Shown here in pieces: positions 9,184 to 60,753 of a DNA stretch of 64,000 nt (the first letter of the stretch is position 1; each line of letters begins with the position of its first letter). A model generated the notes under the pieces. The model was not told where the DNA came from. It saw only the letters and a list, made by a program, of their open reading frames with translations, and made no database searches. Made by a program: the position numbers and the translations under genes. Source of the stretch: a virus (Duplodnaviria; Heunggongvirae; Uroviricota; Caudoviricetes); the IMG/VR virus record IMGVR_UViG_3300014205_000201; one strand, given 5' to 3'.

Positions 9184-9419
9184 TCACCAGTTTTGTTGTA
9201 ACTGTCAATCTTTCTTTCATGCCACCAAATATAGAAGCCTAAACTAATAGAAATAATTACAGCGCCAAAAATTATGTAAGGCAAAATTGATATAAGATTT
9301 AGTGGCCCAGGGCAACCTTGCCAAGTAGTACAGCTATACTTAGCTGGATTAAAGAAGCGGTCTATCTCTTCCCACCAAGTTAAGTTTGCTAAATGCTGAT
9401 GCCAAGCTTCACTCAACAT
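9180..9419 (-). CDS. small membrane protein (79 aa)
   Basis: TM helix; Trp-rich. Confidence 0.45.
   Translation of the reverse strand: MLSEAWHQHLANLTWWEEIDRFFNPAKYSCTTWQGCPGPLNLISILPYIIFGAVIISISLGFYIWWHERKIDSYNKTGE
9184..9208. promoter_or_regulatory. IR motif copy (tcaccagttttgttgtaactgtcaa)
   Basis: abuts the start codon at 9183. Confidence 0.5.
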
Positions 9420-10051
9420 ACATCACCAGTTTTATCATTTTGCAATCTAACAGATAGACAGTCTTTACGACCAGCAACAAAAGAATGTGTATGATAAGCT
9501 TTTACAAGACTAGTATTTTGTACACCTAATTTTAATTTACCAGGTGGATCAATCAACCATGGTTTTTCTTTTATTATTAAACCACGCATTTCATCTTCTA
9601 ATTGTAAATATAGTTTTTCCCTAAAGATCGGATCCTTGTTTTTCTGTGAACGATAATCAAGTAATTTCATCAAAACAATTGCCCTTTCTTTTTTCTGTAC
9701 TAAATAGGGAATGATCTTTGGCAAAATAATTCTTTGAGCATTAGGATAAAAACGTAAGTCATACCCGATTGCAGCAACTTCACCCTCTCGTTTAAAACGC
9801 ATTACAACAATATTTCCCAAACCACAAATCGAGTTTTTTATAAATTCAATATTATGTTTATTCATACTATTTATATTAACACGAGGCTCAAGTTCATAGC
9901 CACGATTACTGCCTTTCCATTTTTTTAGAAGCTTAGGGTTCTTATAATGTCTAAAGAGCATTATACATCCTTCACCATCGACCATTCCAGCGAGATACGC
10001 CCATGTCGTTTCTGGTATAGTTATATCGATTGCCATCACATATTCCACCAA
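9413..10051 (-). CDS. free-standing LAGLIDADG homing-endonuclease-like protein (paralog of 13729-14280)
   Basis: WAYLAGMVDGEGCIML matches the LAGLIDADG consensus; shares IILPKIIPYLVQKKE with the paralog. Confidence 0.65.
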   Translation of the reverse strand: MVEYVMAIDITIPETTWAYLAGMVDGEGCIMLFRHYKNPKLLKKWKGSNRGYELEPRVNINSMNKHNIEFIKNSICGLGNIVVMRFKREGEVAAIGYDLRFYPNAQRIILPKIIPYLVQKKERAIVLMKLLDYRSQKNKDPIFREKLYLQLEDEMRGLIIKEKPWLIDPPGKLKLGVQNTSLVKAYHTHSFVAGRKDCLSVRLQNDKTGDVC

Positions 10052-10721: not shown

Positions 10722-10821
10722 TGTTTATCCTTCCCTGTTGGTTTGTTTTTAAATAAATAATTATAGAAACATAAAATATCTCTATACCAGATATGAATTA
10801 ACTCCCAAAGAAATTCTTCCA

Positions 10822-11121
10822 TTAAGTTTCCCCTTCTGATTGTTTGTCTGAAACCGATAACAAACTTTTACGCAAAAACTTAGCTAAAGCCACTGGGGGA
10901 TTATACCATCTATAAGCGAGTTGGCTATGAGGTTCTAAATCTAATCCACCCCAAACTTGTTCATACCGTTCTGCTATCTGGATTTTTTTACATCTACGGC
11001 ATTGGCGTATTCCGTCTATGGAGTAATTAGTAAATGGTGTCTCATATTCAGTGTCTGGATATGTTATTGTTTGTGTATCGGTGCTTAATATATTCCAGTT
11101 TCTAAAGTGAAGGCAAAGCAT
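10822..11121 (-). CDS. zinc-ribbon protein (CRRCKK), C-terminus SVSDKQSEGET
   Basis: shares its 3' 20-bp repeat with the next gene. Confidence 0.45.
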   Translation of the reverse strand: MLCLHFRNWNILSTDTQTITYPDTEYETPFTNYSIDGIRQCRRCKKIQIAERYEQVWGGLDLEPHSQLAYRWYNPPVALAKFLRKSLLSVSDKQSEGET

Positions 11122-11123
11122 AG

Positions 11124-11399
11124 TTATTTTTCCTCTGTTTGTTTATCCGAAACCGATGGTGTTTTAAGAAGCCATAATCCTATACTCCCAAAGAACCCAA
11201 AAATGATCGGACCAAATACTAACAAGTTATGAATGTTCGTCATTGCTGTTTTGTATTCTGTCGGTGCATAGTCTGGTGCGGCTCCAAAGTTAGTTAAGTA
11301 AAGGGCGGTAAATAATACCGCTAATATCCAAGCTATTATCGTAGTAATTTTTATGGCTGTATGTTCTTCTCGTATTTTTGGTATGTTTAAAGTTTTCAT
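11124..11399 (-). CDS. small membrane protein; start taken at the internal Met (MKTLNIP). The track ORF extends to 11441.
   Basis: SD GGAGA and an IR motif precede the 11399 ATG; C-term SVSDKQTEEK. Confidence 0.45.
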   Translation of the reverse strand: MKTLNIPKIREEHTAIKITTIIAWILAVLFTALYLTNFGAAPDYAPTEYKTAMTNIHNLLVFGPIIFGFFGSIGLWLLKTPSVSDKQTEEK

Positions 11400-11749
11400 T
11401 ATCGTTTTGTCTCCATTTGTTCGTCGCCAGAATGGGTACAATTGTCAATTGTTTTTTTGCTAACTTCCTTACGAAAAGCCAACAAACAATAACATGCAAA
11501 GAAGCCCAACAAGAATGGTCGAGAAACAACATTCGTCATCAATACTAATAACCACACATTTGCCGGTTGAGTAACCGAAACAGGAGTTGTAGGAAAAGTA
11601 AAATAAGCATACAACCCAAATGCAGAGGGTATACTTATAATAACAATAGTAAAGACAAACATTCCAAGCCAAATATATTTCATATACGGTTGGATCTTTG
11701 CAAAGTTATTATCTTGCCATGCGCTTAACCGATTTTTAGAGACAGCCAT
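11399..11749 (-). CDS. small membrane protein (116 aa)
   Basis: 3 TM. Confidence 0.45.
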   Translation of the reverse strand: MAVSKNRLSAWQDNNFAKIQPYMKYIWLGMFVFTIVIISIPSAFGLYAYFTFPTTPVSVTQPANVWLLVLMTNVVSRPFLLGFFACYCLLAFRKEVSKKTIDNCTHSGDEQMETKR

Positions 11750-13351: not shown

Positions 13352-13729
13352 TTAAAACCCCCAGAAATAACTCGTTTTATATTCTAGTTCGTAGGCTAGC
13401 CCGTAGGTTTCGTTGAATATAGCGATGTATCCTTTGACGTTACTAATATATGCTTGATAAACTGGCATTTCAGTTGTAACTTGTCGTGTGAAGTAAACAT
13501 AATCGTCTGTGGTTTGAATAACTGTTGGGCTATTCACAACACCATCATAAACTGTATAGCCTTGAATTTGTAGATCGTGCTTTGCCTGAGCATTAACTGT
13601 ATCACGATTATTTGCAGTAGCATATATGCCGGCGAAAAGACCGCCGCATAATACAACAATAATAGTAATCATTGCGGCAAATATAACAAGTCCGCCGTAT
13701 TCATCCCAAAATCCCCATTCATGCCCCAT
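13352..13729 (-). CDS. small membrane protein (125 aa)
   Basis: TM helix after the N-terminal segment. Confidence 0.45.
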   Translation of the reverse strand: MGHEWGFWDEYGGLVIFAAMITIIVVLCGGLFAGIYATANNRDTVNAQAKHDLQIQGYTVYDGVVNSPTVIQTTDDYVYFTRQVTTEMPVYQAYISNVKGYIAIFNETYGLAYELEYKTSYFWGF

Positions 13730-14280
13730 TATTGTTTATCCTCCTTGCCAGTTAGCAGTATTGTTGGCACAGATTTTTTATACCATTTATAATGATTTGT
13801 TGAATGAGAAAATTTAGTACCATCCCAAATTGGTAAACGATAATATTTCCAGAATTGCTGTTTTTCTTGAGCCATCTCAAACAGAGCATAAAGTTCTTTT
13901 CTTCTCTGCTTTATATTTAAGTTATTAAGAACATGATTCGATTCTAAAAGATTAACCCATTCAAGATATATTTCAGCTATTTCCTTTTTCTGAATAAGAT
14001 AAGGAATAATATTAGGTAATATTATCTTTGCTTCATTTGAACGGAAACGTAGATAGTAAGTAAGAACTTTTCCGACTTCATGTTGCTCCTGTATCTTTCC
14101 CAACTTTAAAAGATATTGTAGGTCAAGCAAATTTTGTAGGTTCATATTTGAAATATTAAATTGACTCTCGCCACTTAAACGGTCTGTTCCGTTTATCTTG
14201 CGTTTACGTTGAGAGATATTAATACAACCCTCGCCATCAACAAAGCCAGCTAGATAAGCCCACACTGTTTCTGGTATCAT
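13729..14280 (-). CDS. free-standing LAGLIDADG homing-endonuclease-like protein (paralog of 9413-10051)
   Basis: WAYLAGFVDGEGCINIS; IILPNIIPYLIQKKE. Confidence 0.65.
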   Translation of the reverse strand: MIPETVWAYLAGFVDGEGCINISQRKRKINGTDRLSGESQFNISNMNLQNLLDLQYLLKLGKIQEQHEVGKVLTYYLRFRSNEAKIILPNIIPYLIQKKEIAEIYLEWVNLLESNHVLNNLNIKQRRKELYALFEMAQEKQQFWKYYRLPIWDGTKFSHSTNHYKWYKKSVPTILLTGKEDKQ

Positions 14281-17825: not shown

Positions 17826-19250
17826 CTATACTATGTCTGAATCATATCCAGTGTTTGATCCTTTGGTTTCGGCTTTTGGTTTTTTGGTAACTGATGGGGC
17901 TGCGGTTGCAAGTTTTTCAACGGTGTCAGTTGCGTTAAGGATTGGGGATGTGTTCTTGCCAATGTTTTCTAGGATCTTGTTGATGTCTAATCCCATATCT
18001 TTTGCTACTTCGGACATTGTGCCAGCGCCAAATCCAGTTTGAGGATTAAGGATGCCACTATCTGCACCACTGTAGACTTTTATTTGCGCTTGTTTCATCG
18101 CTTCTGCCCATGCGTTTGCTTGTACTTTTTTGATTTCAACTGTTGCTTTGATTACTTCTAAGCCCATACCTGCATCGTTATATTTTTTCATTGCGTCGGC
18201 GCGTTTTTCGGTTGCGGCTGCTTCTGCAAATCCAGTGGCTTGAACTACTGCTGCGTTGGCTTCACCTTGTACTTGTTTGACTTTTGCTTCAGCTTGCCCT
18301 TTTTGATATGTTGCTGATGCTTCTCCTTCAGCCTTGGTGATTGTTGCTTGTCTGTCGATTTCGGCTTGGCCCACTGTTAATGCGCGTTCGGCTTCGATTT
18401 GTTTGGCGTTTGCTCTGGCGGTTGCTTCTTGTACTTGTAAGTCTTTTTCTTTAGCCTTTAGTTGTACTGCTTTGTCTTTTTCTTGTTCTTTGATACCGAT
18501 GGCTTCTTGTGTTGCGATTTGCGCTTCTCTGTAAGCTCTTTCGTTTGTTGCTTTGTTTACTTCTGATTCTTTTTTAGCTGTTGATTCTACGATTGTTGCT
18601 TCTTTTTCTTGTCCGGCGACTGCCTTTCGGGTTTCGGCGTTGATGATGCTTGATTGTCTTTCTTCTAAGTCATGGATGACTGTGTAGCCTTCGATATCTG
18701 AGAAGTGGATGACTTCTAATTCGATTACTTTCATGCCCCATTCGCCAAGTTCTTCGTTGACTGCTTTTTCTACGCTTTCGCTAAATTCTTTGCGTTTCTT
18801 CATAATGTCAATGATTGTGTAACCCATAGACATGTTTCGGGTGACTGCTTTGATTACGTTGCTTACATCACTGTCAACTTCTGTTAGGCTAACTTTTGTG
18901 CTGACTCTTTCTGATGCTTGAAGCGGATCGGTTATGTTTAGCCATGCTACCACATCGCCTGCGAACTTTGCCATGTTCATATCGCGTAGAGGGATGTTGT
19001 CTACTTTGATTTGTAAGTTTTCTAATGGTATCTTTGAGATTTGCTGTATGATTGGTATGCGCCAGTAGCTTGAGCCTGAATAGCCTGTGCCTTCGCGGGT
19101 ACAGTAGATGCGTCTACCTTTTGATCTGGTTACGACTACATGCGCTTCGTTAGGGGGTACTACGGTGTAGCTTGATTTTACTGCCAATAGTACGATGACT
19201 ATAGGGATTACTATTGCCAATAATGGCAAGATAATGTCTGTTTCGCTCAT
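17826..19250 (-). CDS. SPFH/band-7 (flotillin-like) membrane protein, 474 aa
   Basis: N-terminal TM, SPFH-like core, long E/A/Q-rich coiled-coil flotillin-type C-terminus. Confidence 0.65.
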   Translation of the reverse strand: MSETDIILPLLAIVIPIVIVLLAVKSSYTVVPPNEAHVVVTRSKGRRIYCTREGTGYSGSSYWRIPIIQQISKIPLENLQIKVDNIPLRDMNMAKFAGDVVAWLNITDPLQASERVSTKVSLTEVDSDVSNVIKAVTRNMSMGYTIIDIMKKRKEFSESVEKAVNEELGEWGMKVIELEVIHFSDIEGYTVIHDLEERQSSIINAETRKAVAGQEKEATIVESTAKKESEVNKATNERAYREAQIATQEAIGIKEQEKDKAVQLKAKEKDLQVQEATARANAKQIEAERALTVGQAEIDRQATITKAEGEASATYQKGQAEAKVKQVQGEANAAVVQATGFAEAAATEKRADAMKKYNDAGMGLEVIKATVEIKKVQANAWAEAMKQAQIKVYSGADSGILNPQTGFGAGTMSEVAKDMGLDINKILENIGKNTSPILNATDTVEKLATAAPSVTKKPKAETKGSNTGYDSDIV

Positions 19251-33690: not shown

Positions 33691-34019
33691 TGCCTAACAC
33701 CTATGTTAAAGTTATCCGTGATTGGAAAGCATCCGGTGGTCCTGATGTCTATTGTCCTGTTGATGTAGCCACTGGTAAAATGTATGTGGGTTTAAGTCTT
33801 ATCGGTTTTGTTCCTAAAGGTGGGATAATTGTGGGGGAGTTTGATGAAAAGACCGATACGCTCACGTTAAATAAACCAAAAGAAACAGTGGCGGGGGTAG
33901 TTGAGAAGAGGGACAACACCCTAAGTCAAAGGGAAGGCGTGGGTTCGACTCCCATCCCCCGACCATCTTCGATTAACAATCAGAAACCAACAGTTAGTCA
34001 ACGACCACAAAATATATAA
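33687..34019 (+). CDS. hypothetical protein (110 aa); its 3' third overlaps a tRNA-like element
   Basis: SD GGAGGAT. Confidence 0.4.
   Translation: MMPNTYVKVIRDWKASGGPDVYCPVDVATGKMYVGLSLIGFVPKGGIIVGEFDEKTDTLTLNKPKETVAGVVEKRDNTLSQREGVGSTPIPRPSSINNQKPTVSQRPQNI
33891..33963 (+). tRNA. tRNA-Asp(GUC)-like 73-nt element (degenerate): full cloverleaf by standard numbering but with G1-A72 and A27-A43 mismatches and A33 instead of U33
   Basis: Acceptor GCGGGGG / CCCCCGA. D arm GTTG-AGAAGAGGGA-CAAC. Anticodon arm CCCT-AAGTCAA-AGGG. T arm GTGGG-TTCGACT-CCCAT. Discriminator C then CA. Confidence 0.3.
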
Positions 34020-49271: not shown

Positions 49272-50171
49272 CTAATATCGCCTTGGCTTAAAGAGATTTC
49301 CAATATATGCGCCCCAGTTCTGATAAATCCCACCGTATCGTGCAATCATTGTATTTGCACCTCTAGCTGGTGCCCAACCGATAAAGCTGCAAAGCGCCAA
49401 AGTATCTTTAATTTCGTAGAACTCGTTAAGCTCCTTAGTACGCACATGCCGCAGACCATGAAGTTTGAAACTATGGTCATGTTGTGGAGTTGTATCATAT
49501 TGTGCTATATCATCTGATTTTTTGAGTTTTTTATATTCTCGGTATATAATACCATTTGTTGGAGATTTTAATTGTGTATTTTCAGGTATAATTGCCAATT
49601 TACCCAACACTATTCTTACAGTATAGCGTTCTACAGGATAAGAAAATTGTTTGAAGCATCCTCTGGTTTCAATGAAGTCTAAGTAATGCTTACGGTTAGA
49701 TGGGAATAATGGTTCATTGCCTCTTTGTTGATAGTAGTTATAGATTTCCTCTGCCCATGGTTCAAACTTTTTATCAAATGGTATTGCAGCATGTCGATAA
49801 GGAACTGTTTCACCTTGCAATAAATGTTTTTTAGCTATAGGAATTTTGAAAACGGCCACTTTTTTGGGAGAGGGAGGCATCATCATCAAGGCCATAACTT
49901 GCCCCATTGACATGTTAGGGTTTGAATTAATTTGGTTTAAACGTTCGGTTTGTTCTTCTGTAGATACTGCGGCTGGGTGATATTCATCTATCCAAGCATA
50001 TCCTTTGCCAATTGTGCCATACGCTTTTTCGCCATTACAAGGTTTATTAGCAAACTCTACGGATCTACCTCCAAAAGTTAAGGCACATTTTGTGAACATG
50101 CGTACTTCAGGATCTTTTATCTGTTCAATTGCCTCTCGTATTAATTGTGGAGTTGGTTCAATAAGTTCCAT
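49272..50171 (-). CDS. tyrosine recombinase/integrase (299 aa); paralog of 55801-56979
   Basis: KLHGLRHVRTKE (HxxR) ... ARYGGIY. Shares FKIPIAKKH ... VPYRHAAIPF ... FEPW with the paralog. Confidence 0.6.
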   Translation of the reverse strand: MELIEPTPQLIREAIEQIKDPEVRMFTKCALTFGGRSVEFANKPCNGEKAYGTIGKGYAWIDEYHPAAVSTEEQTERLNQINSNPNMSMGQVMALMMMPPSPKKVAVFKIPIAKKHLLQGETVPYRHAAIPFDKKFEPWAEEIYNYYQQRGNEPLFPSNRKHYLDFIETRGCFKQFSYPVERYTVRIVLGKLAIIPENTQLKSPTNGIIYREYKKLKKSDDIAQYDTTPQHDHSFKLHGLRHVRTKELNEFYEIKDTLALCSFIGWAPARGANTMIARYGGIYQNWGAYIGNLFKPRRY

Positions 50172-50349
50172 TGTTAAGTTTTCTCCGGTTCTTCTTTTTG
50201 GAATAAAGTTAGCATTAAAAGAAATGCGTTAAAGGCCACACCGACTAATTGACCATATATTTGTGATGCTGGGTCAATGAATGCGACAAAGAAGTATCCT
50301 AAGAATATAATCAATGCAAACCCAGTTGATACGGCTAGGGCGCTATGTA

Positions 50350-50562
50350 TCATGTAATGCGTTTGGGTTTGCGCTCCTTCTTCTTTTCAATAGGTTGCGA
50401 TTTAGCGGGATATCGTTTAGCAAAACAGTCTTTATTATTAGCTACCAGAATAAGTCGGTATAAGCACCCACATGTTTTGCATCTGTAAAGAGTTCCAGAT
50501 TTAGAGTTAATTTCCTCTTTTAGTTTTGCTCCATCATGATCGCAAATTAGGCTAGCCATCAA
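50350..50562 (-). CDS. zinc-ribbon protein (70 aa; CDHDG...CKTCG)
   Basis: adjacent to the integrase. Confidence 0.4.
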   Translation of the reverse strand: MMASLICDHDGAKLKEEINSKSGTLYRCKTCGCLYRLILVANNKDCFAKRYPAKSQPIEKKKERKPKRIT

Positions 50563-50714
50563 ATCGTGTATCTTCTTTGATTCGGTTTTTTACATCTTCA
50601 GGGATAGATTGGTCGAATAATACACTACATAAAACTGACCGCTGATTTGTATTCAAATGGTTATGTCTCCTATATTTATAATCTACAATATGGCGGTAAC
50701 TTGTATAAAAAATA

Positions 50715-50741
50715 TACTGACAGTTGAAAAAGAAGTGTCAC
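50715..50741. promoter_or_regulatory. IR motif variant (actgacagttgaaaaagaagtgtcacc) in the divergent region
   Basis: CTGACAGTT half-site. Confidence 0.4.
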
Positions 50742-50814
50742 CGCATGGATGGCAAAGCTTTTAAGCTGTAACCGCTGAATATTGTATAATCTCGGAAGAG
50801 AGAGGATTGAAAGA

Positions 50815-51318
50815 ATGAACGATACAGTGTTTAGACAAAAAAGAATAGAATCTATCTATATTGATGAAGACGGAATGTATGTCAAAGCAGAAGGAAGAGA
50901 AGTCGAATACGTTGGCTTCTGGCTCCGGCTATATGGCGAACATTTCAGACCCTGTTTAAAATGCCAAACAGAACTAATAGAACTGCTAAATAACGCAGAG
51001 CTAAGTTTTAAACCAAATACCATGGCAGTCTATTTCCATCAACGAGTGGACGAAAAGAAAGACGAAATCTATTACGCCTTTGGATTACCATTCATAAATC
51101 AACTAATCAGTTATGAATGGAAACCATGTGCTACCGACCAAAAAGTTCTCAGAAACATAATCATCAAATGCAAACACTTCAGAATAGGCAACAAAGAATA
51201 CACAGACCCCGTAGAGTTCTATCGAGAGTTTGAAGTAGATGACAAGTCTTGGAAAGAACTAGAACACCGAAAACCCACCAAAGAAGAGATTGAACTAAAT
51301 AACAAAGGTGAACTATAA
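50815..51318 (+). CDS. hypothetical protein (167 aa)
   Basis: SD GAGAGAGGA; TGTATAAT -10-like box 25 nt upstream. Confidence 0.5.
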   Translation: MNDTVFRQKRIESIYIDEDGMYVKAEGREVEYVGFWLRLYGEHFRPCLKCQTELIELLNNAELSFKPNTMAVYFHQRVDEKKDEIYYAFGLPFINQLISYEWKPCATDQKVLRNIIIKCKHFRIGNKEYTDPVEFYREFEVDDKSWKELEHRKPTKEEIELNNKGEL

Positions 51319-51434
51319 TGGACAAATGCAATACAGCGCAACTGAGAGAACGCAAAATTCTGGAACATAGTTGGGCTAAAGGAATTTCTTATACTGAAGC
51401 AAAGCAGCTTATTGAAAACTTTCTAAACTACTGA
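51318..51434 (+). CDS. 38-aa mini-protein (MDKCNTAQLRERKILEHSWAKG...)
   Basis: TAATG overlap. Confidence 0.35.
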   Translation: MDKCNTAQLRERKILEHSWAKGISYTEAKQLIENFLNY

Positions 51435-51626
51435 GGGATAACTTTTGTCAGAAAAGAAATCCAAAATACAAGAGAACATCGATAGACAGGCCAAAGAATG
51501 GAAAGAAGCACATAAAGATAAACCAATTTCTAAAGGCGCTCAAGAATTTGCAGATTGGTTCGAGAAATGGGAAAACCACATCAAAACCGGTAAATTCAAA
51601 AAACCAGAAGCAAAAGAGGAATAACA

Positions 51627-52013
51627 ATGGCTGATTACATTATCGAAACCAAAGACGATAGAGTAATGATCAGCGTACTAAACAATCAAGATAAAAATCA
51701 AGAACGCATGGCAGCCTTCGCTAAATACTTCTTAGACATAATCGAAGAAAAAATAAGCCTTGACAAAATCGGCAACATCATACTACTGCACTACCCAGGC
51801 GACAACAACCAAAACAATTGGTATCCATTTAGAGTTGTACCGTTACTCTGGAAAATGAATATTATAGGAACATCCATGGCACTAGATAATCTGGTGGAAT
51901 GTTTAGGCGGAACTAGAAAACAAGCTAAGAAGATGCTTAAAGATTGCGCTGACAAAGACGCTGACTTAATTCCATTGATTGAAGAATTAAAGCTAGCTGA
52001 AATAGAGGCATAG
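51627..52013 (+). CDS. hypothetical protein (128 aa)
   Basis: SD AAGAGGAA. Confidence 0.5.
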   Translation: MADYIIETKDDRVMISVLNNQDKNQERMAAFAKYFLDIIEEKISLDKIGNIILLHYPGDNNQNNWYPFRVVPLLWKMNIIGTSMALDNLVECLGGTRKQAKKMLKDCADKDADLIPLIEELKLAEIEA

Positions 52014-52032
52014 CCCCTCTTTTTATTTTTAC

Positions 52033-52056
52033 TGCCAGTTCCAGACAAACTGGCGG
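52033..52056. promoter_or_regulatory. IR motif copy (tgccagttccagacaaactggcgg)
   Basis: CCAGTT-N7-AACTGG. Confidence 0.55.
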
Positions 52057-52257
52057 CTAGCAGTAATCGTAGGGATTACCCATCTCTATAACCTTATGCA
52101 AATACTCAAAATGTTTCCTGTGATCAACCTCATTTATCGCAGTGGCATTACATGGTGCTGGCTTACGGACACCAGCATTCAAATGAGCATCCAAATCATG
52201 CTGAGAAAAGAAAAAGACATCTTTACAATACGGGCAGCGATAAATCGTGCCAGTCAC
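52057..52257 (-). CDS. C2H2-like zinc-finger mini-protein (66 aa)
   Basis: YRCPYCKDVFFFSQHDLDAHLNA (C-x2-C ... H-x4-H). Confidence 0.45.
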   Translation of the reverse strand: MTGTIYRCPYCKDVFFFSQHDLDAHLNAGVRKPAPCNATAINEVDHRKHFEYLHKVIEMGNPYDYC

Positions 52258-52460
52258 ATAGGCACCCCCAGAATTTTAGCCACAATTTCTTCAGCGCTAT
52301 AACCGATAGCAAACATATAATCACTAAACTGTGTCTTCCACATATTATTGAAACGTTCACGATCACGCTTACTCATCCAACGAGGAATATCTATAACTTC
52401 AAAATAACCAGATGCCTTATCGACTTTTATCAAATATGCATTTGGGTACATAACAATCAC
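52254..52460 (-). CDS. hypothetical protein (68 aa)
   Basis: ATGA overlap. Confidence 0.4.
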   Translation of the reverse strand: MIVMYPNAYLIKVDKASGYFEVIDIPRWMSKRDRERFNNMWKTQFSDYMFAIGYSAEEIVAKILGVPM

Positions 52461-52587
52461 CTAAGAAATGTTAAAGGTAGACAGGGCGCTCGCCATCTTA
52501 GAATGGACTTGAGAGTGAAAGTGAAACGGGCGGCCACCCCTAACGCCTACACTAAAAAATCTAAGCAACATAACATATAACCGTTTC

Positions 52588-53547
52588 TTACTCATACAAA
52601 CTACCCAACTGCTTCAAATCACTTTTAGGTTTAGATAACTCCGCAAGATAACTGTTAAATCCCTGGATAGCTAACGTGTTTTGCTCTAAGATTTTAGCCA
52701 TACCAGCCTTCTCAAGCTCACTCTGAGTAAACGCTTTATTCACAGCATCAACTAACCTTTCAAACTTTGTAACAATATCCGGTTTAATAACATGAACCTC
52801 TAAACCTCTTTTATGACTAATATCACCCGTAACTATAACAGGCATACCAAGTTCCTTATAAGTGGTAATCATCTTATACGGCAAAGGGCGATCATAATTA
52901 TAAACATCATGAGCATCATACCAAACCACATCGTTCAAAAAAGTCTGACTTATAACTAAATCCGCAATTAACCCAGAAGCAATAAACGCATTATACAATA
53001 ATTGCTTAACTAACCCTATCGGTTCAGTAGCTTTATTTGGATTAACTAAATGAACCCGAACTCTACCATTCACCCACCACTGAATCCTACCCACCGTGTA
53101 CTGCTCTTTATCCCAAATCAAATTATGATTAACATTCTTACTCAACCGCCAACCAACCTCAACAGCCAACCCCGTAACCTCACCATAAAACTTCACCCTA
53201 CTCAAACAATCAGGAACACCAACCTCCGCAAACACCGCATGCTGACTATCAGGCTTTGAACAAACACGATTATATGAGCCTCGCCCATTTTGAGGTAAGG
53301 AACGGATGTCGGTTTTAAATTCGCTAGCATACCGCCATAATAGTTCTTTCTTTTCTTTATAAGGGATCTTTAATTCGACTGCTGCTTTCTTGAGGTATCC
53401 ACGTTTCCGTATGGTAGGATTGTCACGTAGCCATGCAAAAAGTTGGTACTTTAAAGGTTCATCAGAAAGTTTTCCTACCTTGCCCAGAACCTTACCTTCC
53501 TTACCTAGAACCTTACCTGAACTATTGGGATTTGGGTTGATAGCCAT
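52588..53547 (-). CDS. hypothetical protein (319 aa), possibly replication-associated; no motif recognised
   Basis: largest ORF of the module bounded by the two paralogous integrases. Confidence 0.45.
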   Translation of the reverse strand: MAINPNPNSSGKVLGKEGKVLGKVGKLSDEPLKYQLFAWLRDNPTIRKRGYLKKAAVELKIPYKEKKELLWRYASEFKTDIRSLPQNGRGSYNRVCSKPDSQHAVFAEVGVPDCLSRVKFYGEVTGLAVEVGWRLSKNVNHNLIWDKEQYTVGRIQWWVNGRVRVHLVNPNKATEPIGLVKQLLYNAFIASGLIADLVISQTFLNDVVWYDAHDVYNYDRPLPYKMITTYKELGMPVIVTGDISHKRGLEVHVIKPDIVTKFERLVDAVNKAFTQSELEKAGMAKILEQNTLAIQGFNSYLAELSKPKSDLKQLGSLYE

Positions 53548-53814
53548 ACGGAGACACAGCCAAGGGATTGCTTAGGGATAGTTACTTAGACATAAAGTGT
53601 TAATAAGATTTGCCATAGAATTATTTAGCGGCACTGCTAGGAATTATATCATAGCAACTCTGAAAAGAAGCAACCAATGCAGGTTTACAATCATTAGAAT
53701 ACACTTGTTTAAAATTATTATGACCTACACAAGTTCTACACCAAATAATCTTCGCTTGGCAACAATTACAGAAACCATCACTATCAGAACGACGCATATC
53801 TACATCTCCAACAG

Positions 53815-54141
53815 TTATGTTCCTTCAACATGATGCCATTCAAGAACAGGGCGATTATGACAAGTCGATCTTGAACTAGATACATAATTGCCTTTCTTCA
53901 GAAATCCTTGATGAGCTAATTCCTTAAGAATTGCACCATAAACTCGCCGATCACGCCCTAACCGAAATACACTTTCATCTAATTGATGAAGATCATCTGA
54001 AGTTATAGTTTTACGCTTTCGAGCAATAGCTCTAACGGCTAGTTTTAGATTTTCGTCTGAGGGGCACCATTCCATTAATGTTTTAAAGTTTTCTTTAGAT
54101 GGTTCCGCTTTTAATTTAATATTGATTCCTCCTGGGCGCAC
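53815..54141 (-). CDS. hypothetical protein, possibly DNA-binding (108 aa)
   Basis: co-directional packing. Confidence 0.4.
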   Translation of the reverse strand: MRPGGINIKLKAEPSKENFKTLMEWCPSDENLKLAVRAIARKRKTITSDDLHQLDESVFRLGRDRRVYGAILKELAHQGFLKKGNYVSSSRSTCHNRPVLEWHHVEGT

Positions 54142-54305
54142 TTTTTTAGTTCCACTTTTTGTTTAGCGTAATAGAATATTGGCCAAGCGATAATTGAGAG
54201 AACAGCCATAAACGGAATACAAAGTAAAGTAACGGCGGCAACTATTTGTTTTAACAGTAAACATTTAATCAACAAGATAGCGATCTCCCGTGGGGCAATA
54301 AACAA
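54111..54305 (-). CDS. small membrane protein (64 aa)
   Basis: TM helices. Confidence 0.35.
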   Translation of the reverse strand: MFIAPREIAILLIKCLLLKQIVAAVTLLCIPFMAVLSIIAWPIFYYAKQKVELKKCAQEESILN

Positions 54306-54383
54306 ATTCCCCTTTGCCTACTTGCGCGAAACGTTTTTTATAATCCCACATTTGACCGCAACCTTCGCAACATTTGCTTAACA

Positions 54384-54581
54384 TCAATAGCGCCTCGTTC
54401 GTTTAGATTCAAAAGTACAACTAGCCACATACTTACATTTACCGCAAGTTTCATGAATCTTCTTACAATATTCACCGAGGGCTTGCTTAAAATAGAAACA
54501 ACCAGAAAAATCGCGGCTAGCACAATTCATCTTAGTTAAACCATTACAATTATTAATTATAGAACAAACATTCTGAGTCAT
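54384..54581 (-). CDS. Cys-rich mini-protein (65 aa, about 10 Cys)
   Basis: CxxC-rich. Confidence 0.4.
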   Translation of the reverse strand: MTQNVCSIINNCNGLTKMNCASRDFSGCFYFKQALGEYCKKIHETCGKCKYVASCTFESKRTRRY

Positions 54582-54732
54582 AATTCTATTCCTCTAGCGC
54601 GTTCTTTAGCTTTAAATGTCCCACAATAAGTTCCTCCCATATGGTTGCAAGTGTAGCTTGTTTTAGAATACGCTTTACATGTAACTTTGTATATACATGA
54701 TTCACGCATATAATTCATACAGCCACCATCCA

Positions 54733-54975
54733 TTATGATATCCCATCCTTGTTCTTCTTCAAAGATTCATTTTCAACTCGTAAAGCTGTAACTTCTTTGC
54801 CAAGCTTTCCGTTTTCTTTAAGTAAAAGCTGGTTAGCATCAAGCACTTCTTTTAATTTTGAATTAGCCAACACCAAAGGAACCATCATTGTGTTACCACT
54901 AAAACCAGCAGCGCCTACACTGCGGATATCAGAAACTTTAACAGCTAAATTTTCAATACCTAACATATTATTCAA
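54733..54975 (-). CDS. hypothetical coiled-coil protein (80 aa)
   Basis: co-directional packing. Confidence 0.4.
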   Translation of the reverse strand: MNNMLGIENLAVKVSDIRSVGAAGFSGNTMMVPLVLANSKLKEVLDANQLLLKENGKLGKEVTALRVENESLKKNKDGIS

Positions 54976-55089
54976 CTCTCAATCTTGGACATCCAATACA
55001 TTCAGAATCAGCTATACCACTTTTGAAAAAACAAGCCTCTGGGTCAGCACAGATAAAACGACGGTTTTGTTTGATATCTTGAGATGTCA

Positions 55090-55299
55090 TTATGGTTTTC
55101 CTCCAGCAGCCCAAGCTGACAACTTAGCACAGCCATTTACATCACAGGGTTTTTCAGTTAAGCTTTTAGAGCAAACCATACATGGAACTTCAGCTAACAC
55201 ATCATCCAAATTGGGTAATTCAGTTTGAACATTTTTATATACTATTTTTGGGTAATTATCAATTAATGATTTCTGCGTATAATTAAACCTCCACTCCAT
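55090..55299 (-). CDS. Cys-containing mini-protein (69 aa)
   Basis: CMVC...C. Confidence 0.4.
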   Translation of the reverse strand: MEWRFNYTQKSLIDNYPKIVYKNVQTELPNLDDVLAEVPCMVCSKSLTEKPCDVNGCAKLSAWAAGGKP

Positions 55300-55574
55300 T
55301 TACTTTTATTACCTCAAATGTTATTTCATCACCACCCTTCAGAGATAGCAAATCAGTAACATATTTTGGGTATTGCATTCTTTTTCTTGAATCAATTTTA
55401 ATTGTAAATATATGTTTCTTAGGGTTTGTTTCGGTCATCCAAGTTACCTCTCGCTCACCCCATATTACCCCAAGTAGTATAAAAGATTTGTCATAAGTTA
55501 CTGCACTATGACTACCACAACATATTATATACTACCTATCATAAACCGAGTTAACGATAAAGAAGTGTTTTAAA

Positions 55575-55766
55575 ATGCAAGCAGAATCATATATATACAA
55601 AGGGCAAACAGCCCACCTATTCTGGTTAGCACAAAAACTAGCAACCCCAACAATCACAGAACAAGAAGCAACCGAAATAATAGAGGCCGTAAGAAAAACT
55701 AACCCAACAAGAGCCGACCAACTAATAGAGTTTAGAAACAAAAAATTGGAAGCTAGACACACCTAG
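55575..55766 (+). CDS. hypothetical protein (63 aa)
   Basis: the only plus-strand ORF in this segment. Confidence 0.4.
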   Translation: MQAESYIYKGQTAHLFWLAQKLATPTITEQEATEIIEAVRKTNPTRADQLIEFRNKKLEARHT

Positions 55767-55778
55767 CTTTCTCCATGC

Positions 55779-55805
55779 ACCGACAGTTACGATGAAACTG
55801 TCAAC
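55779..55805. promoter_or_regulatory. IR motif copy (caccgacagttacgatgaaactgtcaac); the rightmost copy noticed
   Basis: GACAGTT-N8-AACTGTCA. Confidence 0.5.
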
Positions 55806-56979
55806 AACTAAACTCCACACATAACTTCTTAATATACCGATGCCAACACTCACGAAGCTCCGCATAATTACCAGCTTGATTAGGCAACGCAACACCCCTA
55901 CCAGACCATCCAACATAGGCAACTAAATCTACACCATCAAATCCCCGATACTTCACTAATTCATCAGTACGAATATGCCGTAAACCATGAATCTTCAAAG
56001 GCTTAGGATGTGAAAGTACCTTGTATATTTGGCGGCGATAAATTTTACCATAATAATCCATTCGGTATTCAAACTCGTCAATAGATATGACCTTTAAACC
56101 TATCTTGTTTGGTGAAGTTTCAATAAGTTCATTGTATAACCCTTTCTTAATGCCCTCAAGATCTTCTTTAGATAGTAATTCATCACTCGCATCATTATAT
56201 GTATATTTTTTAATACGATAGGTTAACCCCTTAAACACAGGATCTTTACGACTAATATAATCCCAAATTTCAGCCCTACTAAAAGGAAAAACAGGTTTAC
56301 CCTTATGCATCTGAAAATATTTATAAATTATTTTTGTCCATGGCTCAAAGTCCTCTGATAAAGGTAAAGCCACTAGCCGATAAGGAGCTTCTTCACCTTT
56401 AACTAACCCATGTGTCTTCGCAATTTTGATTTTAAAAACCACAACTGGAATCCGTGTCTTCGCCTTAGTAATAGCATCTTTTATAGAGATGCTACCCTGT
56501 TGTATTGATAGCAACATTTCCAATACATCAAGCCATTGTGGATCAGGAGGCTCAGTATTATCCAACCAAGCATCATCACCGTATGGTCCATAGTTCATGG
56601 TGTACCCACTAGATTTATCAGCAGAAGAACGATTGAAAGCAATTTCACATGCCCTAGCAGCGCCACATAAATAAACAGTCATCAAATAAACACGATAACA
56701 TTCAACCTTCACGCTTTCAATAGCATGACGAACAGCCATAACTGAAGGCAAACTATGACAAGAGGAAACCACAACATCAATCTTCACTCTATCTTGCTTT
56801 CTGCAAAAAACACGGGGAATTTTAATGCGAAATAAACAAGGATACTTATACTCAGATAAAGAAGGATTAAAATTTTTACAGTTGCCACAAAGTAAAGGCA
56901 CATATTTTTTGAGGCTTGGTTTACGTCTTGGCGTATTGGACACCAAAACTAAAGTTAACGCTAACTGACTTAAATACAT
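55801..56979 (-). CDS. tyrosine recombinase/integrase (paralog of 49272-50171). An N-terminal extension of about 120 aa that is Cys-rich may be a mis-start; the Met at MNYGPYGDDAWLD is a plausible true start.
   Basis: KIHGLRHIRTDE (HxxR) ... AELRECWHRY; FKIKIAKTHG ... APYRLVALPL ... FEPW. Confidence 0.6.
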   Translation of the reverse strand: MYLSQLALTLVLVSNTPRRKPSLKKYVPLLCGNCKNFNPSLSEYKYPCLFRIKIPRVFCRKQDRVKIDVVVSSCHSLPSVMAVRHAIESVKVECYRVYLMTVYLCGAARACEIAFNRSSADKSSGYTMNYGPYGDDAWLDNTEPPDPQWLDVLEMLLSIQQGSISIKDAITKAKTRIPVVVFKIKIAKTHGLVKGEEAPYRLVALPLSEDFEPWTKIIYKYFQMHKGKPVFPFSRAEIWDYISRKDPVFKGLTYRIKKYTYNDASDELLSKEDLEGIKKGLYNELIETSPNKIGLKVISIDEFEYRMDYYGKIYRRQIYKVLSHPKPLKIHGLRHIRTDELVKYRGFDGVDLVAYVGWSGRGVALPNQAGNYAELRECWHRYIKKLCVEFSC

Positions 56980-57075
56980 ATTACAAAAATGGATATATGT
57001 CTAATTTAAAATAAAAAAAGGGAAGCCAAGTATGTACCTGAACGTTCCAAGCCATGAAGATTGTACTTAATCATA

Positions 57076-57094
57076 GGGATGCATTTTGCATCCC
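57076..57094. terminator. perfect 8-bp hairpin GGGATGCA-TTT-TGCATCCC, 15 nt downstream of the 57109-59460 stop
   Basis: no adjacent U-tract. Confidence 0.35.
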
Positions 57095-57108
57095 AAAACG
57101 ATTATTCC

Positions 57109-59460
57109 TTATTGAGGGACTCCATTAATGTATGCTACCTGATTAAATGATACGCCGTTAATTTTTGCGATTCTATCAATAGGAACACCACAAATAGTTC
57201 CGCTAAATTCCCAGTAAATAGTTACATTTTGGCTATTACTTGTAGATAAACTAAGAATATGCGTAACTTCTGTATAACTCCATGCTGTAGCACCTATAAC
57301 GGCAAGGGGAGATGATTTGGTACCTATATACACTTGAAATGTGGCTATACCGCTATTGTTTGTATAAAATGTTAGTTCTTTGACAGAGTAGCCTATATCA
57401 GTTATGTTGTTTGTGTTGTCTGAAGTTCCAAAGATTCCAAATATTTCATTATCAAGAATAGTGTAAGATATTGCGTCATATCCCCTTAATGTACTATAAA
57501 TACGTTGATCATTAAGAGTTATTTCTTCAGTGGGTGCATTTAATGAAATATAATTATCGCTAACTTGATAGGTGACATTTACATAATTTCCAGAAAATTT
57601 TAAAGGATCAAAAGTTATGTCTAATCCGTCTATACTTGTTGAGTACGCTACAGTTGTTGTCAAATTAGCGGGGTCACAATATATAGGTTGCGATTGAACC
57701 ATAGAAACCAAACTATTATTAGCCACCCAACATTGTATAGCATCAAAGTAGCTTGTTTGAGTTGCGTTTCCAACATTCAAACCTACATAGTAAACATCTT
57801 TTGTTGCTGTTCTCGTGCATGTAAAAGGTGTCCATAAAGTGTTTGTATCTGTAATAGTGACAGTTGGTGTATAATCACTTGAGCCATCTGTATAGAAGAT
57901 TTTAGCATTTATAGGTATTTGTACACTTGAGTTTGTTTTTATTCTACCCATTACTAAAATAGTGTCACCAGTCATAATTGGGTCTGAACTATTTCCCCCA
58001 AAAGTGGTATTAGTTGTTATGAATAGGTTACCCGCGCTTTCTCTTGATGCTTGTAAACAGTATTCACCTTGATAAGCTTCGGTGGTTACTATTGAATGCG
58101 TAGTGCCAGCTGGGTAATATATTCCACCGTCTGTACCTGTTTCAAAAATATAATTACCCTTGTAAGTTAGAAAAGGATTAACTATGTCAGCGCCAGTTAT
58201 GGATATTGAGGCATCGGGACTAAATCTTGATACCGTCACGGTTTGTGGATAATTTTCAGCTAAAATCACACTACTTGTTTGCTCTCCATTTATTGAAGAT
58301 AAATATGGAATTTCTTGATCAGTAGGTTCCCGTAACCGCATTATTGACATATCGGCGTTATCAAGTGAATTATCATTGAAATTAATGTATATCCAACCGT
58401 TATATATGGTTAGCCAATAGAACCCAAAAGTATCTGATGCATTTGCAATTAACGTGTACCAATTATCGTTATAAAGCAAATAAACGCCTGTTGCTCCTTG
58501 ATGCCCTACACCTCGACGGGTCGAAACAACTTGTAAATTATAATTATTATCTGAGGCAAAACCATAAAATAACTCACTTGTTGATAATTCTAAGCCTAAA
58601 GTATCATTAACGAATGAAAGTGTACTTGATGTTTGCGTTGTCATATTATATTTTATTACTTTTTCTACTTGCCCCGTTGCACCATAAACTGCGTTTTCCA
58701 TCCAGTAATATACTGAGTCACCAACAACGTTGCTTGCAGTAAAAATATTAATATCCGTTATCAACGATGAAACGTTGGATGCTAAATCTAATGAATAAAC
58801 ACCTTTAGGTGAGTCACCGCAGTTTATGAGTAACGCATTGTTTACAAAGTCGTAATTAATTGTATGCACATGGTCTACGTTATTGGAAAGGCTATAATTG
58901 TATATTTGATTAAAATTTGTGCCATTGTCTGAGCTTTGAAATACCAAAGCGTTTTTTCCAGGTAACGCACTATAGCAACCAAACCAAATGTTTAATCCGT
59001 TGTCACATACACTGGTTGGCTGCCACCATCTTAAACTGTAATCTGTAGTTAAAGCAACATTCCAAGAGACGGCGTTATCATGTGATGTGAGCAAATAGTA
59101 AGATGTAGATGTATTAGAAGTAATCATAATTACATTATTTGATGTAATATACAGATTAGTTGCTACCCCATATAATGTTGGTACTGTACCAACGGAATTA
59201 AAGGATAATCCATCTGTTGATTTATAAATTGAGTTAGTGTTAAGTAACCAAATTCCTGTAGATGTTGCCATAAAGATTCTGCTTGTAGTTGCAATATCAC
59301 CCCAACTGGAAGTTACATTTTCATAAGTTAAGAATGATGGCGGCGATTTTGGAGTTATAGCTGTTGCGGTAGGGATAAAGTTTGGAAACAATGCTATACA
59401 ACTTAATAAGATAATAAGAGTTAAACCCATAGCCAAGGCTTTTGTTTTTATTGTGTTCAT
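57109..59460 (-). CDS. large secreted Asn/Thr/Ser/Tyr-rich surface protein (783 aa) with an N-terminal signal peptide and many N-x-S/T sequons
   Basis: MNTIKTKALAMGLTLIILLSCIALF signal; beta-rich; low-complexity NxT/S. Confidence 0.55.
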   Translation of the reverse strand: MNTIKTKALAMGLTLIILLSCIALFPNFIPTATAITPKSPPSFLTYENVTSSWGDIATTSRIFMATSTGIWLLNTNSIYKSTDGLSFNSVGTVPTLYGVATNLYITSNNVIMITSNTSTSYYLLTSHDNAVSWNVALTTDYSLRWWQPTSVCDNGLNIWFGCYSALPGKNALVFQSSDNGTNFNQIYNYSLSNNVDHVHTINYDFVNNALLINCGDSPKGVYSLDLASNVSSLITDINIFTASNVVGDSVYYWMENAVYGATGQVEKVIKYNMTTQTSSTLSFVNDTLGLELSTSELFYGFASDNNYNLQVVSTRRGVGHQGATGVYLLYNDNWYTLIANASDTFGFYWLTIYNGWIYINFNDNSLDNADMSIMRLREPTDQEIPYLSSINGEQTSSVILAENYPQTVTVSRFSPDASISITGADIVNPFLTYKGNYIFETGTDGGIYYPAGTTHSIVTTEAYQGEYCLQASRESAGNLFITTNTTFGGNSSDPIMTGDTILVMGRIKTNSSVQIPINAKIFYTDGSSDYTPTVTITDTNTLWTPFTCTRTATKDVYYVGLNVGNATQTSYFDAIQCWVANNSLVSMVQSQPIYCDPANLTTTVAYSTSIDGLDITFDPLKFSGNYVNVTYQVSDNYISLNAPTEEITLNDQRIYSTLRGYDAISYTILDNEIFGIFGTSDNTNNITDIGYSVKELTFYTNNSGIATFQVYIGTKSSPLAVIGATAWSYTEVTHILSLSTSNSQNVTIYWEFSGTICGVPIDRIAKINGVSFNQVAYINGVPQ

Positions 59461-59472
59461 TCTTAACTCCTC

Positions 59473-60753
59473 CTAATATATTTCTATTAGTTGTATTGAA
59501 GATTGGAAGTGAATTGATGTGGCAATTAATGCTTCACCTACCTGTAGAACTTGATTGCCGCTTAAAGAGGGGAAATCAGCAACAAGTAAACCACTGGTTG
59601 AAGCACTAACATATAATGTGTCGCCTGCTGTCCAAGTCCATGCAGAATTTGTAATTACACCATTTTCAAGAAGTAAAACTTTGCCATCTTCAACATTGCT
59701 GTTCATTGCGAGATAAACGTAACCTTTACCCATCGTCGTTGATGTATCTGCTTTTCCAAGAGCCATTTTATTTGTTGATGAATCGTAAAAAACAACTTGC
59801 CCGACAGTTATTATTACTCCCGCTGTTTGAACAGTTAGAAGAGCGTCTGAGTCGAAAGTAAAGGTTACATAAGTTACGCCGTGTTTTACGGATACAATGT
59901 CACCGTTTGAGCAAACCGTAGAAACATCATCAATTAAAGATGTACTGTTAGTTGATGTAAAACAGATACGCCCCTGTGCATCCTCACCAGTATAATAGCC
60001 ACCATTCAAACCCTGACCAACAGACACAGTATAAGGAGAACCAACACTAGAAGAAGGATTAATATAAGCATACTCCTGACTACCATAAGAGCAAACTACT
60101 GTAACATTAACGGGGATGCTATCCATTAAGGCTAAGTTGAAGGCCACGTTTTTAAGTAGAACTTTACCGCCGCCAGACATAGCTTGCAGAGTTAGTTCCT
60201 CGATCTTTGTATAGTTAGTTGTGTAAGATGACCAAACAGTAGAACCAATACCACCAACTAGGTTATCCCAGTTAGAGCCGTTGATAGCATAGATGTTGCC
60301 ATTACTGTAATTGCCGATTAAATAATCAAAATCCGAAACAGGAGTATCAAGAATATAACCAGTAGTAGCAGTATTCATAGCACGACTAGTAGGCAAACCA
60401 ACAATAACAAAACAACTAACAGCGACAGCGGCGATTAACACCCAACTCGAAAGATGTAAAGTTTGCTTCCGTGTTCTTCCCCAATCCACACGATAACGAG
60501 CCCTAATAAAACGTGAAACAGTAAAAGCTAATAATACCCCGCCAATCACTGGTGGCACAGCATTAAGCCAAACCATATTACTCATAGCATTAGCATAGAA
60601 CAGTAAATCCATATTCTTACCAAAGGCGAAAACAAAGAGGCTAAAAATGCCCTGAGCAAGCGCAGGGATACAGATTAAAGATAAACCGAGAACTAAAGTT
60701 GAAAGGCTGCCTAACGCAAAAGGCTTCTTAACTGATAAAGACTGAGGAAGCAT
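59473..60753 (-). CDS. membrane-anchored surface protein (426 aa): N-terminal multi-TM region plus an extracellular N/S/T-rich domain
   Basis: four hydrophobic helices, then NxS/T-rich. Confidence 0.5.
   Translation of the reverse strand: MLPQSLSVKKPFALGSLSTLVLGLSLICIPALAQGIFSLFVFAFGKNMDLLFYANAMSNMVWLNAVPPVIGGVLLAFTVSRFIRARYRVDWGRTRKQTLHLSSWVLIAAVAVSCFVIVGLPTSRAMNTATTGYILDTPVSDFDYLIGNYSNGNIYAINGSNWDNLVGGIGSTVWSSYTTNYTKIEELTLQAMSGGGKVLLKNVAFNLALMDSIPVNVTVVCSYGSQEYAYINPSSSVGSPYTVSVGQGLNGGYYTGEDAQGRICFTSTNSTSLIDDVSTVCSNGDIVSVKHGVTYVTFTFDSDALLTVQTAGVIITVGQVVFYDSSTNKMALGKADTSTTMGKGYVYLAMNSNVEDGKVLLLENGVITNSAWTWTAGDTLYVSASTSGLLVADFPSLSGNQVLQVGEALIATSIHFQSSIQLIEIY

Follow-up and report, generated by a model that had tools for sequence, protein, structure and literature searches.

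Two apparently ancient paralogs of an unannotated tyrosine recombinase family on either side of a conserved gene module in a virus-like genome

What does it mean when one viral genome carries two related tyrosine recombinase genes a few kilobases apart? The question is raised by the 64,000-nucleotide stretch of IMG/VR virus record IMGVR_UViG_3300014205_000201 (here called the window, always at its full length), in which recombinases A and B are encoded on either side of a module of other genes. A preliminary description of this DNA had proposed that a small related element integrated inside, or in tandem with, a larger one, or else that the recombinase gene was duplicated. Our analysis makes it reasonably probable that A and B are members of an old recombinase family in a replicon of ~87 kb, that A is resident and B accessory, and that the genes between them are backbone. 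A paralogous recombinase pair in one replicon does not alone define a nested element, and this locus may serve as a caution in that respect.

The kinship of the two proteins that was first noted holds well. Both open reading frames (ORFs) lie on the minus strand, and in a BLASTP comparison they align beyond chance over ~310 residues (E = 1e-28, 28% identity), with the shared collinear motifs FKIPIAKKH/FKIKIAKTHG, FEPW, and HGLRH in register; their distance, originally put at 6.5 kb, is 5.6 kb between genes or 6.8 kb from start to start. Orthologs in other genomes are much closer to either protein (60 to 79% identity for A and 48 to 71% for B) than the two are to each other, which argues that the duplication is old. 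A and B thus appear to be two anciently diverged members of a large tyrosine recombinase family, and the suggested duplication would be valid only in this ancient sense. That one recombinase gene was recently duplicated in tandem in this genome, as the common strand and the proximity of the genes might suggest, is extremely improbable, given the low identity, the differing domain architectures, and a clade structure in which each protein has closer orthologs elsewhere.

The same-strand placement of the paralogs 5.6 kb apart could also be the trace of a small related mobile element, with one of the recombinases at its border or within it, that inserted beside or inside the larger one with 50 to 57 kb as its cargo. 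One Logan contig breaks at ~50.8 kb, in the divergent intergenic region (Table 1), and related locus L009 has an indel at that point in the form of an additional 200-aa (amino acid) gene; both would fit such an insertion. We nevertheless consider this explanation very unlikely, as several lines of evidence contradict it. No direct or inverted repeats above chance were found at 50.2 to 50.8 kb or 56.98 to 57.1 kb, where a search for att-like direct repeats had been suggested, at 55.7 to 55.8 kb, or at other module and gene boundaries. The composition is uniform, with unremarkable G+C content of the module region both overall (GC) and at third codon positions (GC3), and the module stands under an operator that occurs genome-wide. 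Two repeat candidates were rejected: the pair 52015-52029/57008-57022 looks like T-rich sequence at the ends of two genes, possibly a terminator, and the 40-nt inverted match 5656-5695/50748-50787, whose exact core of 17 nt falls in promoter-like sequence, is borderline by rough count.

Comparison with related genomes points the same way. The closest relative is represented by loci L044 and L009, which come from one JGI (Joint Genome Institute) sample and whose ends abut exactly when placed on the window sequence. It is collinear with the window from 60171 down to ~46900 and contains, in this order, the fiber-gene N terminus, the whole operon, the plus-strand cluster (three of four genes), the zinc-ribbon gene, A (79% identity), a 173-aa gene, and onward, without B and without the 783-aa gene. 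The closest relative therefore keeps the module together with A and lacks B, and the two recombinases are not a fixed unit. When L044 is compared with the window by blastn, homology stops at 59953 and picks up again at 55496, at the operator after the B stop codon; in place of the ~4.5-kb variable segment between these points, L044 has 1.2 kb coding for a different fiber C terminus. Elsewhere, A-type genes in L007 and L034 are accompanied by a downstream, convergent gene similar to that for the 319-aa protein, in L021 another 319-like gene comes 4 kb after a B-type gene, and in L045 the operon lies between a PKD gene and a fiber gene, with no recombinase in 11 kb. Since module genes are found at A-only loci (L007 and L034), at a B-only locus (L021), and in L044/L009, the module appears to be backbone, its placement among neighboring genes fluid on an evolutionary time scale, and B accessory.

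We also considered an inversion of the block from the C2H2-like gene to A, on account of the 319-like gene that is convergent with A in L034 and L007, and rejected it, as there are no inverted repeats at the implied junctions; the difference in orientation is treated as an old rearrangement. At its contig end (3405-3591), L034 encodes MTGVQTCALPI and STRLNSSH, peptides that we take to be a recurrent assembly artifact, and the last ~150 nt of that contig are untrustworthy.

The distribution of the two recombinases bears on yet another explanation, namely that genome multimers are resolved at one site by A and B together, as a heteromeric pair of the XerC/XerD kind. Two paralogs on one circular replicon would suit such a pair, as would locus L013, from a contig of a Bathyarchaeia metagenome-assembled genome (MAG), where a short B-type recombinase gene is overlapped at its stop codon by a gene with a ParB_N domain (10813-11535), an arrangement that hints at a maintenance or partition context. 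The closest relative, however, has A without B at this locus, only A-type genes were seen in L005 and L007 (within 13 to 21 kb) and only B-type genes in L011, L012, L013, and L021, and a dif-like site was not found in our search, so that we regard a heteromeric pair as quite unlikely.

Table 1. Features of the window discussed in the text (positions are those of the window)
Feature	Coordinates	Strand	Remarks
Canonical tyrosine integrase C, 264 aa	22153..22947	+	PF00589 E=8.6e-8, above gathering score; PHROG integrase families
DnaA-like ATPase gene, 337 aa	22953..23966		PHROG DnaA-like replication initiation protein E=5.4e-9; directly downstream of integrase C
Recombinase A	49272..50171	-	299 aa; clade A of unannotated tyrosine recombinase family; without N-terminal core-binding domain
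59-aa hydrophobic ORF between zinc-ribbon gene and A	50174..50353	-	
70-aa zinc-ribbon protein (CxH...CxxC plus basic tail)	50350..50562	-	Upstream partner of clade A recombinases; no Pfam hit
Divergent intergenic region	50563..50781	.	Imperfect operator at 50721-50737; indel point
Plus-strand cluster, four genes (178, 38, 59, 128 aa), unassigned function	50782..52013	+	No Pfam hit
Palindrome CAGTTCCAGACAAACTG between convergent gene ends	52036..52052	.	
Conserved operon	52057..55438	-	From AbrB-like gene (first) to C2H2-like gene (last)
Variable segment: fiber C terminus, 783-aa gene, B, ~270 bp with 63-aa plus-strand ORF	55497..59952	.	
Operator palindrome CAGTTACGATGAAACTG	55784..55800	.	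Abuts B stop codon, upstream of operon; gcATGGAGAA next on minus strand
Recombinase B	55801..56979	-	392 aa as called; clade B; fused four-Cys N-terminal extension; ~50-aa internal insertion
783-aa Asn/Thr-rich protein	57109..59460	-	N-terminal hydrophobic stretch; fiber-/surface-like look; absent from closest relative
426-aa fiber-like protein	59473..60753	-	N-terminal ~270 aa conserved in L011, L012, L044, L045; C terminus variable

What lies between A and B is a conserved regulatory operon, with an AbrB-like protein and zinc-binding mini-proteins, and a small divergent cluster, and these genes belong to the genome backbone rather than to a cargo. A C2H2-like protein, cysteine-rich mini-proteins, a 319-aa protein, and plus-strand genes are all present as the preliminary description had it. 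In order of transcription, the operon encodes an AbrB-like protein of 51 aa (55283-55438; TIGR01439, E = 3.7e-4, under the cutoff), proteins of 69 and 48 aa, an 80-aa coiled coil, cysteine-rich proteins of 51, 65, and 40 aa, a 108-aa protein (PHROG 27658, of unknown function), a cysteine-rich protein of 58 aa, the 319-aa protein (52588-53547), a protein of 65 aa, and finally the C2H2-like protein of 66 aa (52057-52257). The zf-C2H2 hits of the last are below threshold, and its ORF is 70 to 85% conserved in L034 and L044; the 319-aa protein has no annotation and belongs to a family of 21 clusters, all of them likewise unannotated. The operon is collinear in L044 with 53 to 90% amino acid identity, several of the cysteine-rich mini-ORFs being conserved there, and parts of it are found in L007, L034, L021, and L045. 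In the plus-strand cluster, the 178-, 38-, and 128-aa genes show 87 to 97% protein identity to their counterparts in L009, and a search of that locus gave no match for the 59-aa gene.

What appears to tie the module to the rest of the genome is the palindrome CAGTT-N7-AACTG, present in 8 exact copies in the window against 0.78 expected, with a spacer that is always 7 nt. The exact 17-nt copies start at 8051, 9188, 24136, 37854, 38461, 42281, 52036, and 55784, and imperfect copies occur, for example, at 19785, 50721, and 62310. An element, gcATGGAG, follows 7 nt downstream of four of the eight copies, and a fifth copy has a near-match; the palindrome is probably the promoter operator of a genome-wide regulon. 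Around the module, copies stand at the promoter of the operon (55784), at its end (52036), and, with one mismatch, at the promoter of the plus-strand cluster (50721); the L044 site homologous to the first of these comes directly after the fiber gene. The presence of a genome-wide operator on the module indicates that it is wired into the genome's own regulation, which speaks against a nested element. The palindromes were also tried as recombination sites and rejected, as all eight 7-bp spacers differ and the gcATGGAG element, which follows most of the sites, points to a position upstream of gene starts.

The motif is present in the A-type relatives L005, L007, and L009 and absent from B-only loci, and this raises the possibility that A (or B), its recombinase fold notwithstanding, serves chiefly as a regulator, like MrpR of SPbeta or SroF of phi3T, and binds DNA at the CAGTT-N7-AACTG copies in promoters. 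We give little credence to this idea. Across the family, all six catalytic residues are conserved, tyrosine included, the co-occurrence of motif and A may only mirror the relatedness of the A-bearing genomes, and conventional regulators are at hand in the form of the AbrB-like protein directly downstream of the operator and winged helix-turn-helix (wHTH) proteins.

Candidate catalytic residues occur in A in the canonical order (R36, K114, H238, R241, W266, and Y279), and their counterparts in B are R109, K188, H331, R334, W358, and Y372. These R-K-H-R-W-Y positions are kept in ~73 to 94% of 247 aligned family members, a denominator that counts fragments with gaps. The spacings from the second arginine to the tryptophan (24 to 25 residues) and from the tryptophan to the tyrosine (13 to 14 residues) are Flp-like, and the family has the catalytic-domain fold of the tyrosine recombinase superfamily. 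The first catalytic arginine is already at residue 36 of A, and a core-binding domain is therefore absent from this protein; most B-type proteins (260 to 300 aa) likewise begin ~30 residues ahead of the arginine, and neither A nor B matches the Pfam models PF02899 and PF13495. Two family-specific insertions are located at approximately residues 45 to 100 and 176 to 235 of A. Judged by fold and catalytic signature, A and B are filed under the tyrosine recombinase superfamily, outside any described family, and are best called an architecturally reduced, new family inside it.

This family seems to have escaped annotation. A and B have no match in Pfam at E ≤ 0.1 or in NCBIfam at E ≤ 0.05 (including PF00589, PF16795, and the Xer and integrase models), and none in PHROGs or by phmmer against PDB; a family profile found nothing among PDB sequences (hmmsearch), tblastn of A and B against 50,697 phage and archaeal-virus records returned nothing at E ≤ 1, scans of IMG/VR found no relatives, and the literature that we searched held no description of the family. 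Homologs are unannotated metagenomic proteins only, in 42 clusters for A and 59 for B, and when 1.84 billion representative proteins were searched with a profile, 474 clusters were recovered at E ≤ 1e-3, 313 of them at E ≤ 1e-10 (clusters counted at 50% identity). The distant members P0205 and P0242 alone reach PF00589, below threshold, with E values of ~0.002 to 0.004. Tyrosine recombinases are standard markers for finding and delimiting mobile elements in archaeal genomes, and with ~474 clusters missed by Pfam, NCBIfam, and PHROGs, the elements that carry them are annotated as being without an integrase. Some members of the family have fused domains (P0135, 961 aa; P0224, 514 aa; and P0147, 378 aa), which in this set are an nSTAND3 NTPase, an AAA_5 ATPase, or, weakly, HNH; these fusions may be defense-like, or they may be gene-calling artifacts.

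Archaeal enzymes of known type differ from A and B in several respects. Archaeal XerA (PDB 4a8e from Pyrococcus abyssi; PDB 5hxy from Thermoplasma) has a core-binding domain and hits to PF02899 and PF00589, and A and B have neither; compared with XerA, they also have the two large insertions and a tryptophan instead of a histidine at the fifth position, and no dif-like site was found for them. SSV1-type ("suicidal") integrases (PDB 3vcf; PF16795) possess an N-terminal domain of ~170 aa, the solved catalytic domain comprising residues 174 to 335 of 335, whereas A has no such domain and neither A nor B hits PF16795. Archaeal tyrosine recombinases have been divided into 17 families, all of which are recognized by NCBI cd00397 and two of which have no Pfam hit (Badel et al. 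2021, PMC8371274). In lacking a Pfam match, A and B are like these two families; unlike the families of that survey, which cd00397 recognizes (PMC8371274), they are recognized by no sequence model that we tried, and they are set apart from them by description only.

A zinc module may make up for part of what the enzymes lack. The zinc-ribbon gene upstream of A has homologs (47 to 73% identity) in L005, L007, L009, L034, L038, and L040, each immediately upstream of an A-type gene and some overlapping the start of that gene; the downstream neighbor of A is different in every lineage examined, and this upstream gene is constant. The hydrophobic ORF that lies between the two in the window is of doubtful status because it is not conserved in relatives. 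In B, the extension over A amounts to ~72 codons, residue 78 of B pairing with residue 6 of A, and the remaining excess in length consists of internal insertions. Its cysteines C31, C34, C49, and C60 are conserved in the closest relatives, P0044 to P0047, which suggests that the extension is mostly a genuine fused module. The preliminary description, which had put the extension at about 120 codons and wavered between a fusion and a mis-start, was therefore too generous in length and partly correct on both counts: the fused domain accounts for most of it, and a mis-start is the probable origin of the first ~12 codons as called, as judged from homologs that start at the equivalent of residue 16 or 17 and from the in-frame TTG and GTG at codons 12 and 13 of B. 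The true B is probably a protein of ~380 aa that starts at one of these two codons.

In both cases the zinc module would help in DNA recognition, as a separate 70-aa protein in clade A and as the fused four-cysteine extension in the subclade of B. Recombinases of the FimB/FimE type are similarly small, amount to little beyond a catalytic domain, and rely on separate DNA-binding proteins. FimB and FimE are Pfam-recognizable bacterial proteins whose partners, IHF and Lrp, come from the host; the zinc-ribbon partner of A would be analogous to these accessory factors, but it is encoded by a dedicated adjacent gene and is not a host protein. How DNA is clamped and a synapse formed without a core-binding domain, with two large insertions and with a zinc partner or a four-cysteine module, is a mechanistic question that this family poses.

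While A keeps company with a zinc-ribbon gene, B is linked to fiber-like genes. All six insert-bearing B-clade genes that we saw in context (those of the window, L011, L012, L046, L047, and L048) lie directly 3' of a fiber-like gene for 600 to 800 aa on the same strand, and these fiber-like genes are mosaically related; the 783-aa protein of the window, for example, is weakly similar to a 732-aa protein of L011. The left edge of the variable segment that contains B is the constant/variable junction of the 426-aa fiber gene. Loci L046 and L047, from two samples, have an identical B-clade recombinase and 99.8% identity over 4.5 kb and then diverge abruptly inside the next fiber-like gene, ~400 nt downstream of the B-type gene (L046 ~4505-4528 versus L047 ~5116-5139); past this breakpoint, L046 has reverse-strand genes, including one for a beta-helix protein. 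The difference could reflect either an inversion or the replacement of a cassette. An attempt to join the two loci as inversion isomers did not succeed. That clade B genes consistently stand just 3' of mosaic fiber-like genes is a lead on how host-recognition genes diversify in uncultivated archaeal viruses.

Short inverted repeats occur in the same neighborhood. In the window they are 59947-59959/61165-61177 (13 nt, perfect) and 57405-57421/61045-61061 (17 nt, 94%), and they join the minus-strand genes for the 426-aa and 783-aa proteins, in frame, to a plus-strand gene for a 199-aa PKD protein; the copy at 59947-59959 coincides with the very point at which DNA homology to L044 and L045 stops. 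A comparable in-frame repeat in L046 (1330-1356/5189-5215) lies between opposite-strand surface-protein genes. The 13-nt repeat at the fiber junction was found to be conserved neither in L045 nor in L044, and the window repeats may be a reflection of Asn/Thr-rich peptides.

These observations lead to the most interesting alternative for B, a recombinase of the fiber module that inverts or exchanges C-terminal receptor-binding cassettes. Among known systems, the Rci shufflon likewise has a tyrosine recombinase gene among fiber or adhesin genes with variable C termini. The XerD-type Int1 of phiCh1 and phiH1 is flanked by two oppositely oriented fiber genes with many repeats (PMC6210493), and the embedding of a clade B recombinase gene in fiber or adhesin genes with variable C termini resembles that module. 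The constant position of B-type genes behind fiber-like genes, the coincidence of the segment edge with the fiber junction, the L046/L047 breakpoint inside a fiber-like gene despite an identical recombinase, the in-frame repeats between opposite-strand surface-protein genes, and the phiCh1/phiH1 precedent (PMC6210493) all favor a switch of this kind. However, unlike the Int1 module, the window has no inverted fiber copy, that is, no oppositely oriented alternative C terminus, and no conserved repeats beside B; the short repeats code for sequon peptides rich in Asn and Thr and lack conservation in L045, there is no overlap between the ends of L046 and L047 that would demonstrate an inversion, no conserved DNA site adjoins the B-type genes, and all three assemblies of the genome have the identical orientation across their common stretch, 44.5 to 60.2 kb. 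On balance we hold a fiber switch to be possible and rather unlikely. Much the same applies to a broader speculation, which we put forward tentatively, that the family is a catalytic-only class in which recognition is left to the zinc-ribbon protein or the four-cysteine module and in which clade B moves or inverts fiber cassettes between or within archaeal viruses.

The replicon in which these genes reside is larger than the window, which is probably part of a circular, extrachromosomal, virus-like genome of ~87.0 kb. Two independent assemblies, of 87,133 bp (JGI, Ga0378408_0000526) and 87,147 bp (ENA, k141_2474516), are mutually permuted by 6.6 kb, and both come to 87,006 bp once terminal overlaps of 127 nt (JGI) and 141 nt (ENA) are subtracted, the 141-nt overlap being taken from the k141 contig name and the 127-nt overlap being an assumption. 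That two permuted assemblies reduce to an equal size makes a complete circular genome likely. Contigs with B-type genes in two Bathyarchaeia MAGs are the sole host clue, and it is only via these related recombinase genes that the genome is associated with Bathyarchaeia.

A third, divergent integrase had been noted at 22153, and this gene, integrase C, is indeed canonical and unrelated in sequence to A and B. The profile of the A/B family gave no match to integrase C in hhalign, a weak test with a single-sequence target, and the hit of integrase C to the NCBIfam XerA model is below threshold. Integrase C and the DnaA-like gene lie near a strand-switch region at 19 to 20 kb, whose neighborhood may be an origin and integration module.

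Our results lead us to picture A as the resident recombinase of a virus lineage, placed near the head of a long leftward operon, and B as an accessory gene in a variable segment at the 3' end of mosaic fiber-like genes. B was most likely gained here, or lost in the relative, by modular exchange, with the left junction at the boundary between the constant and variable parts of the fiber gene. Each enzyme would act on the viral genome by conservative site-specific recombination. The simplest assignment of integration is to integrase C, which adjoins the replication-initiator-like gene; multimer resolution or a second integration specificity would then remain for A, and a role linked to the fiber module for B. 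The reaction and the biological role of A and B in this picture are what we infer from their surroundings and their signatures.

Several points weigh against this reading. The available sequence of the closest relative amounts to 13.4 kb, and B could lie elsewhere in that genome. The catalytic residues were assigned from alignment order and secondary-structure position, without a superposed active site. A recombination site was identified for neither A nor B, and neither an integrated copy nor an alternative junction came to light. Circularity is deduced from the arithmetic of assembly sizes rather than from observed terminal overlaps and is thus no more than probable, and since no capsid gene was recognized within the window, the replicon may be either a virus or a plasmid.

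The remaining gene content of the window includes glycosyltransferases, an SSB-like OB-fold protein, a Dam-like methyltransferase, RNA ligase, a prepilin-peptidase-like protein, fiber-like proteins, and homing endonucleases of the LAGLIDADG and NUMOD3/Vsr types. The last are represented by free-standing genes at 3687-4640, 9413-10051, and 13729-14280, one with NUMOD3 and Vsr/DUF559 and two with LAGLIDADG, of which that at 9413-10051 is under the Pfam cutoff. A 69-nt direct repeat (94% identity, 90 nt spacing) is located near the start of the window, at 2748-2816 and 2838-2906. A tRNA-Asp gene lies inside the genome at 33891-33964 (Rfam, 31 bits), and the L012 locus of a B-type relative has a five-tRNA array at 18547-18982; these internal tRNA genes indicate that the elements encode tRNAs of their own and that a tRNA gene is no sign of an integration border here.

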